Below are positions 1 through 48,555 of a DNA stretch of 64,000 bases, in pieces. Both the position numbers and the translations under genes were made by a program. Position 1 is the first letter of the stretch; every line of letters begins with the position of its first letter. The stretch is from Lophium mytilinum (Eukaryota). The notes under the pieces were generated by a model. The model saw only the letters and a list, made by a program, of their open reading frames with translations. It did no database searches and had not been told where the DNA came from. The stretch is taken from NCBI GenBank assembly GCA_010093605.1, contig MU004184.1:2179-66178 (forward strand). Reading direction: 5' to 3'.

Positions 1-599
1 ACTATTTATTTACTATATTCTTAAGATATATATTAGCTAGTTACTATAATAGATATTATAGTATTTATAGTTCTTATTACTAAATATACTTCTAGAGAAA
101 AGATAAGTATATACCTCTAAATTTCTTTATATATACCTCTAATTTCTCTATATATACCCCCTTATTATTTAATCTTCTAATTAGCTAGAATAGGCTAGAA
201 CTTTACCCGGAGCTCTATTCTTATACTTAACTTACTTACTAATTTTACTTCTCTAAATATAGTATAGCTATAAATAATTATATTCTTATTCTATACCTCT
301 ATAATATACTAAGTCTTAGCCTTATACTTAGGTAGTACTAGTATAGCTTACTATTAAAAAGCTTCTATATTAGATAGTATTATATTAGATAGAATAGAGG
401 GGGTTATTAATTAAAATAGCTAGGGGGGTATAGTAGTAATATAAGGGGCCTAGGTTTAATATAGAGATACTATAATAAGGTAAGATTTTAACTATTTTAG
501 TATACTTCTAGATATATAGATATATATATAGTAATATAATAGCCTCTATAAATAAAAAATAGAAAGAAAATAGTAAAATAGATATAATATATAGCTTTA

Positions 600-781
600 T
601 ATAATAGATCTAGGCCTCTTTTCCTAGCTATATTATGTATTTACTAGGAATATTATTATTCCGCTACTAACATGCCTAGATAGTTCTGCGAGCAGCCTTA
701 TACTCTAGCTTCTTGCAGCTTATCTTATAATATAATTCTACTTCTTATTTAATATACCTCTATACCTACCTGCCTATAATA
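600..781 (+). repeat. 5' LTR
   Basis: Gap-free match to 8727-8908. Ends are TA...TA, consistent with RIP-converted TG...CA. Confidence 0.93.
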
Positions 782-899
782 CTATAAGCTACCTAATATA
801 CTAGAATTTCTTTTATAAGTTTCTAGATACGCGTTATAAAATAGTACTCTAAAAGGCTGCGCAGTAGCCTTACTATTAAGAACTTTAGCTATATAGCCT

Positions 900-1120
900 T
901 AAATTACTTAATTACTTAGTTAAGAACCTATAGGTTAGCTTAGTTAATTACTTAGTATAAGGCCTGCAGGTTAGCTTAGTTAATTACTTAGTTAATTACT
1001 TAGTATATAGCCTGCAGGTTAGCTTAGTTAATAGCCTACGGGTTAGCCTAGTTAATTACTTAGTATATAGCCTGCGGGTTAGCTTAGTTAAAAAGATAGC
1101 CTAGTATATAGCCTACGGGC
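900..1120 (+). repeat. Tandem repeat array in the retrotransposon 5' leader
   Basis: Recurrent units GCCT(G/A)C(A/G)GGTTAGCTTAGTTAA and TTACTTAGT. Confidence 0.8.
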
Positions 1121-4100
1121 GCCCTTAAAATAATCTATAGATCTACTTATATATATATATTTATATAAGCTGTATAGCCTTACTATATACTATATAGACC
1201 TTCTATTATTTACTATAAAATATATAGCCTTACTATAAGCTATATAGACTTTTTATTATTTACTATAGGCTAATCTAACTTAGGTCTAGCTATATAGCTA
1301 CTTTAGCCTAGCTAATTTCTTTCTCTCTCTCTCTTCTATATACTTACCTACTTTTACTAATAACTTTTCTTTCTACCTTCTACTAAGCTATAAGAAGCTA
1401 TTATTTCTTTTACTTAACCTATAGGTTAATAGCTTATCTATTATTACGCGTAAACTATAGGTTACCTACTACTTCTACTATTTTATCTTACTAGCCCCTA
1501 TTATAAGTACTATAGAGGACCTAGTCTTTATTATATCTAAACCTAAGAATAAAAATAAGAGTAAGACTAGTTCTAGTAATATATTCTCTCTAACTTATAA
1601 TCGCCTTAAGCGTAAGTAGAAGTCTTAAGATAATAAGCCCGAGTAGTTTACCTAAAATACTAGCGGAATTATAGTAGATATATAATAGACGTCCGCTATC
1701 TTAGGTTATAGCTAATAGGTTGCCCTTAATAATAGGGATAATAATAATAATAATAATATTAGAGACGTTAATAGTCTATTATTCGGGCTAATTAATACTC
1801 TAGGCAAGAAGTATATTAGTAAAATACTAGTAAATCTTATAGTGTAGACCCCGGGTAACTTTATTAAAGACTCTATATTTATTAACTACTCTACTCTCGC
1901 CCTTAGTATAGATAAGTAACTAGGCCTTATCTAAATTAATAATATAAATAGCTACCTTATACTTATTAAAGCTAACTCTAAAAAGTAATTTTAGATTCTG
2001 CAAGAATATAAGATATAAGCCTAGCGCGAAAAAATTATATATAAGAATACTAAAGAGCGTTGCAACACACTATAAATTAACCTTAACCTTAAATAGAATA
2101 TTATAAAAGAATATAAGAATATAGTGCAGGATAAAGAGAATAAGGTTTATAAGCTCTTAGATAAGAATAAGTAGTTAGAATAAGAACTTTAGAAGGCTAA
2201 GGCTAACCTTACTATAATCTCTAGGGCATCTACTAATAACCTAGTTAAGGTCTATAAAGATAAGTCTAACTAGTAGAAAGCTAAACTTACTAGCTAAGCT
2301 AATAAGCTTTTTTAATTTACTATAAAGACTAAGAAGCTAGAGAAGAAGGTAGAAAAGCTTAAAGAAAAGCTAGAGAAAAGTAAAGTAAGGATATATAAGG
2401 TAAAAGAGGATACTAATTACTAAGCTAAGAACCTCTCTAACTATAAGAAGAACTATAAAAGCGCTAAGGCCGCCTATAACTTTTAAAAGAATAAAGTATT
2501 AGCCCTAGAAAAAGAAGCTATAAAGCTCCGCTAGATAGTTACTACTAATATTATATTATCTACCCTAGAATAATAATCTATACTAGTTAAGGTGTTAGCT
2601 ATAACTACTAGAAAGCCTAATTACCTAGATTCTATTTATTAAACCTTCCCTATTATCTCTTCTCTATTTAGCGGCAAGGATTTCTTTAATAGAAATAACC
2701 GCAGTAATATAGGTAGAGAGAACCTATATAAGCATAAGAAATAATCTAGAAAGTTAAAACCTTATTAAAGTAAGCACCGCAATAATAATAACTCTAGTAG
2801 TTCTAGCAGCTTCTTATCTAGCTTATCTAATTCTAATAGTAGCTACTATAGTTATAATTACAGCTATTACTATTCTAAATATAAATACTTACGCTTACGC
2901 TTACACTTATATAACTATATTACTAACGCACCTAAATTTAACGGTAATAAGATATAATATATAGGATAGAAGGCCCGTATTATAATAAAGTTAGAGGGAG
3001 GCAGTTATAATTTCTACTAAGAGAAGAATAGGCTTATATATATAATAGGCAGGATTAAACTTAACTCTATAGCTAGATAAGCTATAATAGCTTAATAAGA
3101 GGTTAACCCTATTACTACTCTTACTAAGGTATAGCAGTTTATAGATAACTAATACCTTAATCTAGATATAGAAAATATAGCTTATAAGAATCTATACTTA
3201 ATATTCTAAGGGGCGACTAAGTTAATTAATAACTTCTAGAGTCGCATGTAGAAGTAAACTAACCTAATTTCTTACTAGAATAAAAATAAGAATATAATGC
3301 GTAAACTTTAAGAGTAAAGGCTTATCTAGGTTAATAAAGAAGCTACTTTTAGTAAGGTTTTTAATACTATAGTAGAGATAGTTATAGCTATATAGCATTA
3401 CTAGCGTAATACTACTATAGCGGCGCGCGTTAATGCCTTTTATTATACTAATCTAGTAGCCTAAGCCTAGCGCGGAGGTTACTAGCATAGAGAATATAGA
3501 GAATACTAAGGTAGTTATAATACTTATAGAGGTTACTAATTATAGTGCGGCTTATATAACTAAGCCCTTTAACCTAACTAGCCTCTTACTATTATAGCCG
3601 CGGGTGTTAATAATAATACTAATTCTCGCACTAGTTAGCTATAGGCCCTAGTTAATGTCCTAGTAAACTAGAAGCCTCTAGAAGTAATAACTAATACTAA
3701 GCGCGCTATACTGCGGGCTAATAGTAGTTATTACTAATACTATATACCTAGCTATAAAGAAAAAGATAATTCTAACTACTCTATAGCTTAACTTATTACT
3801 AATCGCCCTACTCTATTTTCTTACTCTAGCTAGCTAGGCGCCTTAGCTATTCGCGCTATATAGCAGGGATAGGGAAATACATAGCCCTAGATTATAGCCG
3901 CGACTTAGAGCCTATAGTAAGTAGTACTAACTTAATACTAGTTATATAGTTAATATATAAAGAAATAGTAGGCATAATTAATAAACTAGATAGACTTAGG
4001 CTAGAATCTCTAAATACTCTTAAAATTAGTAAAGCCTTAATTTAGATAGATATTACTCTATAGAATAAGTACTATCTAAAGCTACTTAGAGAAGTCTAGA

Positions 4101-7100
4101 TATATAGAAATAGTAAGCCTATTTCTACTATACCTACTCTTTTACTAATTAATAGTAGAGCTATATATAATTTTATTAATACTACTTATATACATATCTA
4201 TAATTTACCTCTTATCCCCTTACTCCGCGCGTGCATACTTAAATTAGCTAATAGAGGCACTATTACTAAGAAGATTACCTATACTACTCTTATATACTTC
4301 TAACTTAATAGTTATGCTAAATAGATAGAGGCCTTTATTACGGAGCTCGGCCCTGCATTTCTTATTCTTAGATATAAATAGCTTAAGAAGTATAACCCCG
4401 CAATTAATTAGTATAAGAGGCGTTTTAATTTCTTCTAACTATACTATTATTATTACTATATAATATAGAGTACTATAATAACTTAAAGCCCCTTATATAG
4501 GCTAGAAATAGTACTTCTAATAAGTATAAATATATAATATAATATATATTATATATCTACCGGCCTAACTTATATATATATAAAGAAAGAATAGAATATA
4601 AAAAAACTTCTACTATATATTCTATAAGAAATAGATAATAATTATAATATCCTTATCTATAATAATAGCATCTAGGTGCTTATTATCTAATAGGGCACTA
4701 ATATTCTAGAACGCGTTAACGCTATTATAATAACTAATATTAATAAGTTCCTCCGCGCTAAGATATATATAATAAAGGATAAAATCCTCTATAAGCTTCT
4801 AAAAGAATACTACCTATATATTAATATATTTAATTAAACCGACGTAAATACTCTTCTACTAAATTAACCTAGCGTAGATTATAAAATTTACCTACTTTTA
4901 GGCGTAGAAGAGAAGCTTCTATAGGCCCGGCCTTATTTAATATTAAAAGGAGAGCTACAAGTTATTAAGAAATAGATAGATAATAATCTCGCGAAAGGCT
5001 TTATTAAACCCGCCTAATCTAATATCTTATTACTAATCCTCCTTATTAGGAAACTGGACGGCGGCGTATAATTCTATATTAACTACTAAGCTGTAAATAC
5101 CCTTATAGTTAAATTATAATACCTAATTCCACTAATATAAGAAACTATAAACCGGCTTAGTTATGCTAAATAGTTTACTAAGCTAGACGTTATTAGTGCT
5201 TTTAATAGAATTAGAATAAGACTAGAGGATAAATATTTTATAGGATTTACTATACGCTACGGTGCGTTTAAATTAAAGGTTCTCCTATTTAGATTAACTA
5301 GAGGACTAGCAATATTTTAAGGTTATATTAATAACGCCCTATATAACTACCTAGATAATTTCTATTCTATATACTTTAATAATATTCTTATATACTCTAT
5401 AGATAAGAAGAAATACTAAAAGCATATTAAGAAGGTCCTTTAATAACTATATAAGCACGGCTTGCAGGCTAATATTAATAAATCCAAATTTAGCGTTAAA
5501 TAGGTTAAATACCTAGGCCTTATTATTACTACTAAAGGAATTTATATAGACCTAGATAAAGTTAAAGTAATTATAAGCTAGTAAACCCTAACCTATATTA
5601 AAGATATATAAGCATTCCTTAGCCTAGCTAACTTTTATCGCCGTTTTATATATAGATTCTCTAGGATTATATATCTACTAACCTTAATAATATATATAAC
5701 TGGCGATAACACGTTAAAAAAGAATAAGAAAGGCAAATCTTAGCCTAGGTTCTACTAGAATAATAATTACGAGATAGCCTTTAGAACTCTTAAGGCAGCG
5801 TTTATCTTAGTACCTATACTTACCTACTTTTAATATAGTAAAAAGGTCTATATTAAGATAGACGCTTCTAACTATATTATAGCTAGTATTATATTATAAA
5901 TAGAAGAAGACGGCCTTCTATATTCTATAGCCTTCTTTTTAATAAAGATATTACTATAGGAAATAAACTATAAGATATATAATAAGGAGCTTCTCGCAAT
6001 TATTAAAGCTTTTAAATAGTAGAGACCTAAACTAGCTAGTGCTAATTCTAAAGACTCTATAGAAATTCTTATAGATTACTAAAATCTAGAATAGTTTATA
6101 ACTATAAAATAACTTAATAGATATTAGGCCTAATAGGCGGAATTTCTTATAGGCTTTAATTTTAAAATTATATATTAACCTAGAGTATTTAGTATTAAAC
6201 TAGATAGCTTTACTAGACGTTTATAGAACCTACCCTAAGAACCTAATAATCTATAGAATTAATTTTAATATTAAATAATACTAAAAAGCTATTACCTTAG
6301 CCCTAGCGTTGCACTATTAGTTACTAACGCTAAACTCTAGGTAGATAATATAGATAATGCTAAAACTAAATAAATAAGCTATATAATAAGTAGCCTAACG
6401 GCTAACTTTTATCTAAGCTTATTATTTAAAGAATTACCTTATTATTTTATACTTAACCTATTACTAGCTATAAGTTTATATATTAGCTTCTTCTAGCTTA
6501 CGCTAGCTATTATATAAGATGGCGCCCTTCTAGTAAATTAACCTAACTAATCTAATCCTAATAAGGAGCTAGAATAGATACTTAGTAATTTAATTAGTAA
6601 CGCTTATTATATCCCGCTAGAACTAGAGAAGCTAATAGATTCTATAGTATACGCGCTAATAGTACTTATATAGAATAGAGCGCGCACTATTCCTATAGCG
6701 CTATAATAAGTTATTAGAAACCTTAACCTAGGCGTATTTAAGGTTATTAGCAAGAAAGCTAATATAAGGTTATACTATTATAGTTAATTATTTATACTAG
6801 ACTATACAGCCCTATAGTTATAATTAATATAGATCGCCTATATTATACTAGCTAGCGGCTATCTAGGTAAGTATAGTATATATAAGCTTCTCTAGAGGTA
6901 CTATTTCTAGCTAAAAATAATAGATTCTATTAAGTAATTTATAAAAGCCTACTATAGCTATTATTAAGCTAAAGCCTCTAGAAGTAAGAAGTAAGAACTG
7001 CTACGCAGTCTTTCTATAGGAGAACACCGCTAGACTAATATTATATTTAACTTTATTATAGATCTTTCTCTCTATATAAGAAATAGTATTAAATATATAT

Positions 7101-8711
7101 CTATTCTAGTTATAATTAATTATATATCTAAGTAATAATACTATATTCTAATAGCAGGCATAATAGTAAAAGATATTACTAACGCGTTTATCTATAAGAT
7201 CTTCCGCCTCTACGGCCTACTATAATAAATTATTAGTAATTAAGGCACTAATTTTACCTCTAATTTCTAGCAAAGAGTTTATATACGCTTAGGCGTTAAC
7301 CTAAAGTTATTAACAGCCTATTACCCTAAAATAGATAGATAGATAGAGAACGTAAACTTATTTATAAAAGCTTTTCTTAGGCTTTTTATTAACTACTAGT
7401 AGAGTAATTAGGTTAACTAACTTTCTATTAGTAAATTTATTATAAATAATATAGTTAACACCTTAATAGGCTTCTCCCCGTTCTTTTTTAATTATAGTTT
7501 CTATCTATAATAAGGCATTAAACTACTAGCTCTATTAAAATAAGGGCTAGCCTATTACACGCGCGTTAATTTTATACTAGCTAATTAATACGTTGCGCAT
7601 CTTTAAGAAGTACTAGTAGAGGGATAGTAATAGATAACCTAGGTAAAGAATAAGTAGGTAGAGTTCGCGAATTAATATTAGAACCCCCCGCCATTAATAA
7701 AAGTAGATAATTAGGTATAGCTTAACGCTAGAAACATTAAGATAGAATATAAAAATAAGTTGCTAGATTATAAGAATATTAGACTATACTAAATTAAGGC
7801 TATTATTAATTACAGCGTAGTATATAAGCTAAAGCTTCTATAAAACCTCCTTAATTAGTATATATAGCCTATATTCTCTCTATACCTACTCTACCTTAAT
7901 AACTTAGTTCTAGTTCTAGGATAATAATAGCCTAAGCTACTACTAGTTATTATTATTAATAATAAAGAAGAGAAATATATAGAGTACTCTATTAATAAAA
8001 TTATTACTAGTAGATAGTATTATAGAGAATATTATTAAAAACTATAGTATAAGCCCTAGTAGACTAGCTATATAAAGCTAGGGAACTAGAAAAACTAGGC
8101 TATATTTATAGGCGCGTAAAAGCTAGTCTAGAAGTTCTATTAACTCTATTTATAAGAAGATAGCCCTTATATAGACTTTCTAAAGCTACTAGAAAAATAG
8201 TAGTATAAAGATAACCTAGATTTAAATAATACTATATATATAGTAGCCCTATAATTATATAGTTAAAGTTAGTAGGCTTAAAATTAATATTATAAGTTAT
8301 AATATTAGCTAGCTATTTAAAGTAAGGCTAGTTCTTTACTTTAGATTCTTAGTTGCACGGTTTCTACTAAGTTATTAGAGGAGGTTGTTACTTAGTAACA
8401 CCTTAAGTACGCTATTATAAGTATTCCGGCCTATCTAAGATTATAGTTATAGTATAGTATAGCTATAACTCTTACTTAGTATACTTAGATTAAGGGGCTA
8501 CTAATATATAGGCAGTTATTTACTAATAGTAAATTAATAGCCCTTCTATTCTTTAATAGACTTTCTATTTAATATAGCTTAGCGTACCTAAACTCTATAT
8601 ACTTACTATATATAATATAGCCTCTCTACGCGTAATATAGCCCTATTAAACACGGTTTAATTACTACTATATAATTAGTTTACAAGTCTTATTAAAGAAG
8701 GGAGCTTCTTT

Positions 8712-8726
8712 AAAAGGGAGGGGTAG
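8712..8726 (+). other. Polypurine tract of the LTR element
   Basis: AAAAGGGAGGGGTAG directly abuts the 3' LTR. Confidence 0.85.
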
Positions 8727-8908
8727 TATAATAGATCTAGGCCTCTTTTTCTAGCTATATTACGTATTTACTAGGAACATTATTATTTCGCTACTAACGT
8801 ACCTAGATAGTTCCGCAAGCAGCCTTATACTCTAGCTTCTTGCAGCTTATTTTATAATATAATTCTACTTCTTATTTAATATACCTCTATACCTACCTGC
8901 CCGTAATA
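8727..8908 (+). repeat. 3' LTR
   Basis: Matches the 5' LTR and is followed by TSD CTTTA. Confidence 0.93.
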
Positions 8909-9663
8909 CTTTACTATAAGTATAGCTTTAAGTATAGCCTTATATATACTAAAGTAGTAATCTAAGCCCTTTAAGCTAATTAGAAGATTAGATAATAGAG
9001 GGGTATATATAGAGAAATTAGAGAGTATATATAAAGAAATTAGAGGGTATATACTTATTTTTTTTCTACTTTTATTCTATTTAAATTAATAAAAAGGCGT
9101 AGAAGAGTTACTAGAATTAACTTTATCTTTTTTAGTATTAACTAGTATAGCGCCTTTATCTTTTTAATAGCTTTAAGTATACTTATACTTCTTAGATTTT
9201 AATTTAAACTAATTTTTACTAGTAGCCTAGAATAGATTTAATATACTTTTTAAAACTCTATATACTTTATATTATACTATTAAAATAAGTATAGTTTTCT
9301 TATATTATATATAGCTACTAAAAACGCGTACTATTAGAAAGAAAGCTAAAAATAAAGCTATAAAGTTTAATAAGTTTCTAGAAGCTATTATATAGTAGGT
9401 AAATAGCTAGTATATAAATTTAAAAAAAAGCTTAGTATATTATAATACTAAGTATAAAGGTAATTATACTACGCTTTAAGAGGTATAAAATCTAGTTTAA
9501 TATTATACTACTTAGCTACTATTAACCTCTATATTTATTCCTGTAATAAATTTAGCCTCGTTACTAGCTAGATATAGGCACGCGTTCGCTACATCCGCTA
9601 GTTTATACAACCGACGTAGGGGGACATTGCTCATGAATTTCGTCTAATTTTCTGGGGTATCGG

Positions 9664-10699
9664 ATGGCCACTAAAGGCTTCAAATCTGGTTGCGGTTTAG
9701 CCTTCCGTGAAGCTATCGAGGTGCAAGATCACCCACAAGCCTGTGCCGCCTGGAAAGGGGCATATCGTCCCAAATGCTCGGGCATCATCTCTCCACCAAA
9801 CAAACGGCAGGGAAAGGACTGCAGGTCGACAAGTTGTACGTTGCGGAACAGATCAAGTACGCTGATAAATGTTACCTAGCCATGACAATTGACCGAGAGA
9901 AGTACTGCCCGGCAATCATCTTGAGGAAGAACGGTGGTATCGACATCGAGACGGTGGCCAAAGAGCATCCAGAGCAGCTGCTCACGTTCCATTTTTCCGT
10001 TACCAAGGGAATCACACCAGAGATCTTGGATCGAATCGCCGCACCACTAGGAACAGGGCCAGCAGAGACGCACAGTCTCGGAGAAATCTTACGCGGCATG
10101 CACCGGTCTTTTGTCGCCAAAGCCGCCACGCTGCTCGAGATCAACCTTCTGGTGCGGTCGGCTGACGGCTCCTTCACCTGTCCTGATGCCAAGTTCACGT
10201 TCGACAATGCTGCCGAGAACCGGCAGACGGAGCTGTTTGCACTCCGAGACCCTGCCCACGAGCACGCAGACGAGGTTCAAGTTTAGAAGTCGGGGCTCGT
10301 ATATGTGCGGTCAGACAGCAATATCGGGAACGTGGTCAACGGTGCCGGGTTAGACATGGCTACGAACGACGCCATCGCATACCATGGAGGCGCGAGTGCG
10401 AACTTCCTCGATGCCGGAGGACAAGCAACCCAGGCGACTATGCAGAAAGCGTTTGAGATCATCCTGCGAGATGAGAGAATGAACACGCTATTCGTGAATA
10501 TATATGGGGGAATCATCAGGCGTGATATGATTGCTGAATCCATCATAGCGGCGGCTCCAGAGCGGTGGTGAGGCTGCAGGGCACGAATGCAGAACTGGGG
10601 TTGAAGTTGGTGGAAGAGGCAGATCTAGGACTCCATACTGAGTCTGATTTTGGCAAAGCTGCTTAGAAGGCGGTTGAGTTAGCGAGATCAGCTAGGTAG
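9664..10699 (+). pseudogene. Succinyl-CoA ligase beta subunit pseudogene
   Basis: Motifs MLGHHLSTKQT, GGIDIE, ATLLEINLL, DAKFTFD, NIGNVVNGAGL-MATND, ANFLDAGG, VNIYGGI and VVRLQGTN. In-frame TAG at 10284-10286, a frameshift/deletion near 10560, a second TAG at ~10664, and a lost N-terminus. Confidence 0.88.
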
Positions 10700-46541: not shown

Positions 46542-46707
46542 CCACGCGCCGGTTTCCAGGCACCACGCGCCAGTTTCCAGGCACCCTCCTACACCTTCCA
46601 GAGCTTCCGCCAGTTTCTGCCAGTTTCCACGCCCTCTCGCTCGTCCAATCACAGCCCCTCGCTTCGCCCTCTGCTGAGTCATCGCCAATTCTACCCAGAG
46701 TATATAA
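46542..46707 (+). promoter_or_regulatory. Pol II-type promoter of the U4 gene
   Basis: TATATAA at 46701-46707, 40 nt before the U4 5' end. CCAAT at 46645 and 46685. Four GCCRGTTTCY copies at 46548-46628, including a 21-bp tandem repeat at 46542-46583. Confidence 0.6.
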
Positions 46708-46740
46708 GGCCAGCTCCCCCTCGACCTTCCTTCTTTCCTC

Positions 46741-46933
46741 ATCCTAGTGCAAGGCAAGTCTCCTCTCCCCCTCCTTTCCTCATCACCTCGCTCTGAGCTT
46801 CTCACTAACATTCTCTCACAGGGCATTACGCGCGTCAGTGAGGATTCGTCCGAGACCGTGTCTTTTGCTGATTGAAAACTACCAATCGACCTGCTCCTGT
46901 TGGTCTTCGGATCGGCAGGGAATTTTTGGAACA
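46741..46933 (+). ncRNA. U4: U4 spliceosomal snRNA, interrupted by a 68-nt intron (exon 1 46741-46753, exon 2 46822-~46933)
   Basis: Spliced 5' end ATCCTAGTGCAAGGGCATTACGCGCGTCAGTGAGGATTCGTCCGAGA is collinear with yeast U4 as recalled (ATCCTTATGCACGGGAAATACGCATATCAGTGAGGATTCGTCCGAGA). Also present: stem-I TTTTGCTG, 3' hairpin CCTGTTGGTC-TTCG-GATCGGCAGG and Sm site AATTTTTGG (46921-46929). Confidence 0.92.
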
Positions 46934-48555
46934 AACACTCGAATGAGATATCTCTTCAACCTTTTTTCATTGAACTGCTCGGCTTGTCCGGGTACTCGAA
47001 GAAGAACTTGTTTGTTTTGGTGGCTGGAGAGGTGAGGAAGTCGGCGCTGAGGCGCGCTGGTGTTGTCGGGTTGTTTAATGCGCTTCACTACCGTTGTCTG
47101 TAGATGATTCTCGTCGCAGTGCATGGTGTTGCTCGCTGCTGCTAGCTAGGTAGACGCTCTCCAGCATCATGGGAATTCGATCGTCACCAGCTTCTGCTCT
47201 GTTCGACAGTTCACTGGGATGCGAGCTGAAGTAGATTAACGTGAACAACATCACCATGTACATTTGTATTGCTTGACGACGCATCGCGTCAGGGCGGTGT
47301 TGCGCTGTGGGCGCGTCCACAAGCTTTCAGGTGATCCGCTATGGTGTTGAGGCGCGCGTCCGCCACAATGCAGACTCGCAAGGACAGCGAGAAAGACGCG
47401 TAGGTGCGTAGGTGCGCAGGACGAGATACAGGCTTGACACAACGGAAGGCCCTCAGCTTCTACGGTGTTGTGATGCCTCTGGCAGTGACATGTGGGCGTT
47501 CAGACGCGTCGCCCGCGCGCCATCATCGACACAGTGTTGCAAGATCCCAGCAGGATCTCCACGCACAAGCTCTTTTACAGATCTATGGTACACGGTACAT
47601 AACATTTCCATTCTTTTGAGGTCACAGAAGCCTAACTAGTCGGGGTAGAGGTGTGGTGACAGGAGGCTGTCTTCCAGCCGGATGTGGATCTCGAAGGAAG
47701 GCAAACTGGTTGTCTTCACGCACGAATAGATGAAGCTGATGATGGAATGGAAGCCTAAACGCTCACGCGTTCTCTTGGCCGCAGCGATGATGGTGTCGAC
47801 GTGCCTCATGAACCCAGCCAGCCCTTGAAGCTGCTCCATACCGCAACTCACAACTCACATAGCCATCTTCATCCCTTGGTACACCCTAGGAGACTGCGAA
47901 TCCATCACCTAAGCTTGGGACAGGCCACTTAAGGGGCCTGGAGACATCGTGAAGATGCCAGGGAGCTCTTACTGTGAAGATCGACCCGTCTACCACGATC
48001 TTTAAGACCACCGCTGTCGATGTAGCACGTCGCTATAGAATCACCTCTTCCTTACCTCTCCATCTATATTCCCTTCTATGAGGAGTTCTTCGCTGCGTTG
48101 GCCGCATCCGCAGCGAGCTCGCCGGAGACGGAAGTCTGAGGCAACAGGCAGGGCTCGATTAAAAAAAGGTGGCAGTCCACGAATCTACAATCGTAACCCA
48201 GATTTTTCGATGCTTCAGATATTAACATACTCTAGGATTGTGGATTCTACACTCGCCTGGCTCCCCTTGAGGCCCTTTAATATGGTATTATGAACTGGAA
48301 AAAAACGATTCCCGACATGCCTGATAGCTCTTCGGGCCACCTCCCCTGGCGACAGAGTGCACTGGCACTTGATGTTTTACGACGGGTGGCAGGTACGTTG
48401 GACGTTGCTTGGAGGTGCTAATTACCCTTAAAGCTAACAAAACCACCGGTAGCATGGGTTAGGATGACATCGCGCACGGTTCGGCATCCCCGCCATCACC
48501 CTTCATCCCCAACACCATCATCAGTGAGCTGGAAGAAGCCATTCCGTCCCCCATA

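Follow-up and report, generated by a model that had tools for sequence, protein, structure and literature searches.

Can the gene for a spliceosomal RNA be split by an intron that the spliceosome itself would have to remove before that RNA can pair with its partner? A U4 snRNA locus of the fungus Lophium mytilinum raises this question, because a first-pass annotation of its sequence had proposed a GC-AG spliceosomal intron in the segment that forms stem II of the U4/U6 duplex. We analysed the whole stretch of DNA that holds the locus, a window of 64,000 nt (assembly GCA_010093605.1, contig MU004184.1, positions 2,179 to 66,178), and compared its U4 gene with U4 genes from other fungi. A component of the spliceosome whose U6-pairing strand is restored only by splicing would be a simple and testable case of self-dependence.

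Structure of the U4 locus

The sole Rfam match in the window is to U4 (RF00015), at 46810-46941, with 78.1 bits and an E-value of 1.2e-15 (gathering score 46); at E ≤ 1 no family besides U4 was found anywhere in the window, and U6 is not among the matches either. The gene passes the covariance-model test, with model positions 1-138 aligned without truncation, and the K-turn stem-loop, the 3' stem-loop and the Sm site are all intact in the alignment. A conserved U4 5' end stands directly upstream of the 5' stem-loop only once positions 46754-46821 are taken out. The first-pass annotation had described the 5' end of this U4 as absent in place; it can indeed be found as a 13-nt piece at 46741-46753, but Rfam alone shows no gap, because it aligns the last 12 bases of the putative intron to model positions 1-12. 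As the end of the intron is laid over the start of the model, the annotation that results is that of an uninterrupted, slightly odd U4. On re-reading the sequence, we found the U4 core, the first exon, the donor, the branch point, the acceptor and the TATA box all where they had been claimed to be (Table 1).

Table 1. Features of the U4 locus and of its proposed intron, in positions of the window.
Feature	Position	Strand	Basis or remark
TGAGTCA upstream element	46675-46681	+	read in the sequence; 66 nt before the proposed start at 46741
TATA box TATATAA, Pol II-type snRNA promoter	46701-46707	+	40 nt before 46741
U4 exon 1, 13 nt, ATCCTAGTGCAAG, 5' end of mature U4 (U4/U6 stem II strand)	46741-46753	+	matches intronless relatives; profile alignment; decoy test
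GC-AG spliceosomal intron, 68 nt (predicted splicing)	46754-46821	+	splice signals and intron-aware alignment
Donor GCAAGT	46754-46759	+	sequence
Branch site CACTAAC	46803-46809	+	the A at 46808 is the branch nucleotide, 13 nt from the 3' end of the intron
Acceptor CAG	46819-46821	+	sequence
U4 exon 2 (3' end approximate)	46822-46941	+	Rfam RF00015 alignment
Rest of the stem II strand, start of exon 2	from 46822	+	Rfam RF00015 alignment
5' stem-loop with K-turn	46828-46861	+	Rfam RF00015 alignment
Stem I strand	about 46865-46873	+	Rfam RF00015 alignment
3' stem-loop with UUCG	about 46891-46920	+	Rfam RF00015 alignment
UUCG loop of the 3' hairpin	46906-46909	+	sequence
Sm site AATTTTTGG	46921-46929	+	sequence; Rfam alignment

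The segment between the two exons has the donor, branch site, acceptor, fungal spacing and length of a U2-type GC-AG intron, and it is pyrimidine-rich from its donor to its branch site. GC is the rarer donor type; with its exon context (AAG/GCAAGT, the slash marking the splice site), the donor follows the full consensus save for the C at +2.

Other features of the region may be recorded here. A 15-nt stretch (CCTTCTTTCCTCATC, 46729-46743), made up of the leader and the opening three bases of exon 1, recurs inside the intron at 46770-46784 with 93% identity, which may be due to chance in pyrimidine-rich sequence or may be a trace of the origin of the intron. Three to four copies of a motif of about 20 nt resembling GCCAGTTTCCAGGCACC lie at 46542-46638, 100-200 nt upstream of the U4 start, and may be upstream promoter elements. 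Finally, a block of 27-31% G+C within positions 1-10000 adjoins sequence of 49-57% G+C and is reminiscent of the AT-rich, repeat-mutated blocks found in many filamentous ascomycetes. A database search with a P-type ATPase exon of the window placed Ascomycota first among the phyla of its matches.

Fungal U4 genes and intron-aware alignment

Metagenome contigs were scanned for a 20-base sequence, the core of the 5' stem-loop, which gave at least 116 fungal U4 loci (designated here by L numbers). In most of these, an unbroken run of 27 nt that begins with ATC precedes the core. A position profile of 120 columns was built from 37 intronless fungal loci; the other three of the 40 candidates (L002, L011 and L104) were left out, since what looks like their 5' end is, or may be, the end of an intron. 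We then aligned the profile to 117 sequences, allowing introns of 35-450 nt that start with GT or GC and end with AG, at a charge of 8 bits for GT and 11 bits for GC. The 106 of 117 rows that scored at least 95 were kept; they represent 77 unique gene sequences, that of the window among them. The 11 dropped rows (L003, L007, L010, L048, L049, L053, L056, L057, L059, L070 and L092) are either not U4 or come from contigs that break off within the gene.

Evidence for an intron in the window U4

The intron-aware alignment places one intron in the window gene, after column 13 (46754-46821), with exon 1 at profile columns 1-13, and the joined 5' end fits columns 1-27. Over the full profile the gene scores 147.2 with the intron and 135.9 without it, after the 11-bit GC penalty; over the first 47 columns, the spliced reading reaches 62.0 and the unspliced reading 50.7, also after the GC charge. 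The gap-free match to yeast U4 that the first-pass annotation had noted was checked by comparing the joined sequence with the yeast-type locus L096: both have 27 nt before the conserved 20-mer, and 19 of these 27 are identical, with no gaps.

Relatives were surveyed for the intron, a check that the first-pass annotation had suggested. Among the loci listed, the nearest relatives of the window gene are L039, L085 and L095, whose mature sequence is about 93% identical to it and which are its sisters in a tree, with weak support (91/48). All three are intronless and run uninterrupted across the junction, and their first 18 nt equal exon 1 of the window joined to the first five bases of exon 2. 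Introns were called in 24 of the 77 unique genes; among the loci listed there is no orthologue whose intron is homologous to that of the window gene. L104 is interrupted by a GT-AG intron where the window gene has its own, and a common origin of the two introns was considered and set aside: they are 56% identical (0.56), roughly the level of unrelated sequences, and the two genes are placed apart in the tree, so we do not claim such an origin.

Could the sequence be read without an intron, with U4 starting near 46810 with a divergent 5' end and the upstream 13-mer matching by chance? The untruncated Rfam alignment is what such a gene would give, and the 5' end of L011 (...TCAG) seems to be a genuine, uninterrupted start, which means that sequences resembling intron ends can be real 5' ends. 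The decoys argue against this reading. They kept the true last 22 bases of the intron and had the rest of the 300-nt upstream region replaced, either with pieces from elsewhere in the window or with upstream shuffles; 0 of 1500 of the former and 0 of 1500 of the latter reached 62.0 over columns 1-47, so that none of the 3000 matched the spliced score, and the maximum was 58.2. Furthermore, U4 positions 8-10 are TGC in 37/37 intronless members of the profile; the spliced window sequence keeps TGC, whereas the unspliced one has CAC. The Rfam scores of L039, L085 and L095 (96.6, 96.6 and 97.2 bits), which we took as the nearest stand-in for scoring the window in its spliced and unspliced forms, leave the unspliced window gene 18.5-19 bits short, and the gap is framed exactly by a canonical donor, branch site and acceptor.

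The promoter bears on the same point. In L039, L085 and L095 the TATA box lies 39-40 nt before the start, as compared with 40 nt in the window. Of the 23 genes interrupted within their first 30 nt (the window gene included), 15 have a TATAWA element, and in 14 of these 15 exon 1 begins 40-44 nt away. TATAWA was also found in 33 of 62 intronless rows, at distances of 39-100 nt (39-59 nt in 25 of the 33). A start at 46810 would put the TATA box 109 nt away, beyond all 33 intronless values. The TGAGTCA element, which would have a role in the promoter, is shared with 4 of 10 further loci examined (L001, L009, L034 and L038), where it precedes +1 by 75-82 nt, and the pyrimidine-rich leader of the window, which ends in ...cctc before the first A, resembles that of other loci. 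Because TATA spacing, TGAGTCA and leader are alike in other loci, the promoter appears to be built around exon 1 rather than exon 2, and the spacing points to 46741 as the probable start. Given these results, we consider an uninterrupted gene starting near 46810 very improbable.

The proposal of a U4 split by a GC-AG spliceosomal intron in its stem II segment has thus held up well: the joined sequence of the relatives, the TATA spacing, the matching splice signals and a clean decoy test together lend it strong support at the level of sequence.

Introns across fungal U4 genes

Among the loci listed, the aligner called no intron in 53 of the 77 unique genes, one in 14, two in seven and three in three. 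Its count of 24 genes with spliceosomal introns rises to 26 of 77 when L002 and L077 are read by eye; both carry, after nt 7, the intron found in L112 and L106, which the aligner missed because the end of the intron mimics a U4 5' end. L092, dropped because its contig ends inside the gene, shows two more introns. The 37 called introns in the loci listed occupy 21 profile positions, with up to three per gene, and measure 46-87 nt, with a median of 56. In 36 of them a YTRAY branch motif can be recognised, at a distance from the 3' end of 10-16 nt in 35 cases and of 6 nt in one. The window intron, with its 68 nt and its branch A at 13 nt, lies within both ranges, and its splice signals agree with those of the other 36. 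The genes L014, L086 and L111 each combine a U4 of about 120 nt with three canonical GT-AG introns of 53-63 nt, and these three fall below the Rfam gathering score, which the other 17 of 20 loci tested pass. Covariance searches that are blind to introns would under-score or miss such genes, so fungal snRNA annotation is likely to be incomplete. That Rfam-based annotation misses the genes with the most interruptions may be why U4 introns went undescribed.

Comparisons of similar genes support the reality of these introns. A single 54-nt block after nt 24, present in L018 and L042 and precisely absent from L060, is all that separates these loci in the gene; they agree fully in mature sequence, their promoters are homologous, and L042 (with the intron) and L060 (without it) are contigs of one metagenome. 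Within the groups L015/L027/L036 and L035/L072, exons are 100% identical and introns 80-88%, while in more distant pairs introns are 44-65% identical and exons 81-94%.

The donor is clearly GT in 33 of the 37 introns and GC in two, those of the window and of L035; in the remaining two (L054 and L083, after column 62) it is unclear, as the GT labels of the aligner are forced there and the DNA at the conserved exon end reads GG or GA. The inserts of L054 and L083 start with GGACGT or GAAAGT where L014 has an intron with GTATGT, and the two genes depart from conserved columns at 4-5 places; either the donors are non-canonical or the two genes are decaying copies. First exons of only 4-7 nt, followed by a canonical donor, occur in L022, L040, L112, L106 and L092, where the 5' splice site would lie almost at the cap. 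We also considered whether introns are enriched in the U6-pairing segments, in or next to which about 11 of the 21 positions lie, and set the idea aside because the genes are related to each other.

Judged by these alignments, introns are frequent in the U4 genes of environmental ascomycete-like contigs, and the locus of the window is not unique. On balance, we lean slightly towards a history in which U4 is no exception among the spliceosomal snRNAs and its genes gained introns repeatedly in many ascomycete-like fungi, at no fewer than 21 positions and with precise presence or absence, the GC-AG intron of the window being one such gain.

Constraint on the window gene

Of the 80 columns conserved at 95% or more, the mature U4 of the window departs from the consensus at 5, whereas 49 of 74 rows have no departure; L096 (13) and L089 (7) alone exceed this among the 74 rows, and L013 and L083 likewise reach 5. 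One of the five departures is common to the L039 group. The others are private to the window; among them, in or next to the strand of stem I, are one additional C and one substituted base. The departures fit a divergent lineage, and would also fit some relaxation of constraint.

Relaxed constraint would be expected if the intron-bearing copy were a silent or decaying paralogue whose insertion is never or rarely removed, with an intronless U4 elsewhere in the genome supplying the cell. The number of departures, among the highest of the 74 rows, fits this idea. So does the occurrence, within a single metagenome project, of copies that have identical mature sequence but differ in the presence of an intron (L042 and L060, with L018), which makes mixed sets of U4 copies plausible, and the GG or GA donors and the 4-5 departures of L054 and L083 hint that some intron-bearing copies decay. 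However, the splice signals of the window are all intact, the donor matching the consensus apart from +2, and its TATA box and upstream element lie at the usual distances. Both stem-loops, the 5' one with its K-turn included, and the Sm site are likewise preserved, the two of five departures in or beside the stem I strand could be specific to the lineage, and intron-bearing genes of other lineages are clearly under constraint. We therefore regard a silent paralogue as unlikely. The reading that we think probable is that of a U4 gene that starts at 46741, with a 13-nt exon 1 and a 68-nt GC-AG intron that the spliceosome removes.

Predicted expression and splicing of the window U4

For such a gene, RNA polymerase II would start at 46741 from the TATA-type promoter, and the capped transcript would carry the 13-nt exon 1, the 68-nt U2-type intron and the body of U4. 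U1 would recognise AAG/GCAAGU, which departs from a full consensus only at +2; the A at 46808 in the branch site would attack, and G46753 would be joined to G46822. Only after this joining would the stem II strand be continuous and able to pair with U6 in the U4/U6 di-snRNP. In the unspliced transcript the strand would be split by 68 nt, and proper assembly is not expected. Transcription from 46741, splicing and the function of the product are all predictions from the features of the DNA. Of two sequencing runs, one, whose kind is not given, yielded a 226-nt contig on 46600-46810 with 3 differing letters and no joint, and the other only an unrelated 34-nt piece; neither run bears on expression.

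It has also been suggested that the intron is real and that its GC donor makes splicing rate-limiting, which would tie the supply of U4 to the activity of the spliceosome as a regulatory loop. The argument for this is one of structural logic: unspliced RNA is unable to form stem II, which makes the output of U4 dependent on splicing, and the donor has a C at +2. The first-pass annotation had called this donor weak. The C at +2 stands, but the site otherwise follows the full consensus, and GC alternates with GT in L035 (GCAAGT) and L072 (GTACGT), which share one homologous intron and have identical exons, so that a GC donor appears to be tolerated in U4 introns. A bottleneck at GC could not be general to the class, since most U4 introns surveyed use GT. 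Furthermore, a product that needs its own machine would give positive and not homeostatic feedback, unless other elements exist. Autoregulation through the U4 intron is thus speculation, and in our judgement improbable, slightly more so than a silent paralogue.

Comparison with known introns in small RNA genes

Introns in the genes for U6, U2 and U5 have been used as clues to the RNAs that lie near the catalytic centre, by the argument that introns enter these genes through reverse splicing. U4 departs before catalysis and yet appears to host introns, which would weaken this argument from proximity. It would be the second case, after U1, of an intron-hosting snRNA that leaves before catalysis, and by our survey a far more abundant one, offering many independent gains and losses to study. 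If the introns are real, the U4 class would make it possible to test reverse splicing near the active site against insertion into any abundant nuclear RNA with a proto-splice site, and it is suited to such tests of intron origin precisely because U4 leaves before catalysis.

An intron in the U6 gene of Schizosaccharomyces pombe, of the mRNA type, was reportedly described by Tani and Ohshima in 1989, and Canzler and colleagues are said to have surveyed fungal U6 introns in 2016. Introns in the U2, U1 and U5 genes of Rhodotorula hasegawae were reportedly found by Takahashi and colleagues in 1993 and 1996. The first-pass annotation named no characterised case in U4, and our search agrees, as the literature searched yielded no description of a U4 gene with an intron, although the class may be known outside that literature. 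In the portions available, a 2018 review of U6 lists spliceosomal introns in U6, U2, U5 and U1, the only snRNAs that it names in this respect, and in rRNA genes, and it describes the U1 introns as being at odds with the proximity argument from reverse splicing (PMC5855946). The accessible text of Canzler et al. 2017 names U3 and U6 as the sole small structured RNAs to be often interrupted by introns (PMC5832005). In the part available of a small-RNA study of Aspergillus fumigatus, U2 and U4 "could only be partially aligned" (PMC2377427), which for U4 would fit introns that went unnoticed. What is known, then, is that snRNA genes can hold mRNA-type introns; what seems to be new is such an intron in U4, as a frequent class that we did not find described.

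The window locus has the sequence features of an intron-bearing snRNA gene with intronless homologues in its relatives, and it can probably be placed beside three known systems. The fungal U3 snoRNA genes of Saccharomyces cerevisiae and Neurospora crassa are alike in that they encode an independently transcribed small RNA with a TATA promoter, a trimethylguanosine cap and a spliceosomal intron, which in U3 lies close to the 5' end. U3 differs from U4 in being nucleolar and outside the spliceosome, so that no self-reference arises. The fungal U6 introns form a second system. As far as the available parts of the sources describe them, they too are spliceosomal introns in a conserved functional segment of an snRNA gene, patchy among related fungi, and in a transcript that is spliced by the machine it helps to build. 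U6 is, however, a Pol III transcript located in the catalytic centre, whereas U4 is a Pol II transcript of the Sm class that is released before catalysis, and the window U4 further differs from the U6 cases in its first exon of only 13 nt and in its GC donor. The third system is that of the U2, U1 and U5 genes of Rhodotorula hasegawae, which, in what the accessible sources say of them, are Sm-class Pol II snRNA genes with spliceosomal introns in conserved sequences, U1 leaving, like U4, before the active site forms. These are single cases from one basidiomycete yeast, whereas the U4 introns of our survey come from many lineages, at 21 positions and with up to three in one gene.
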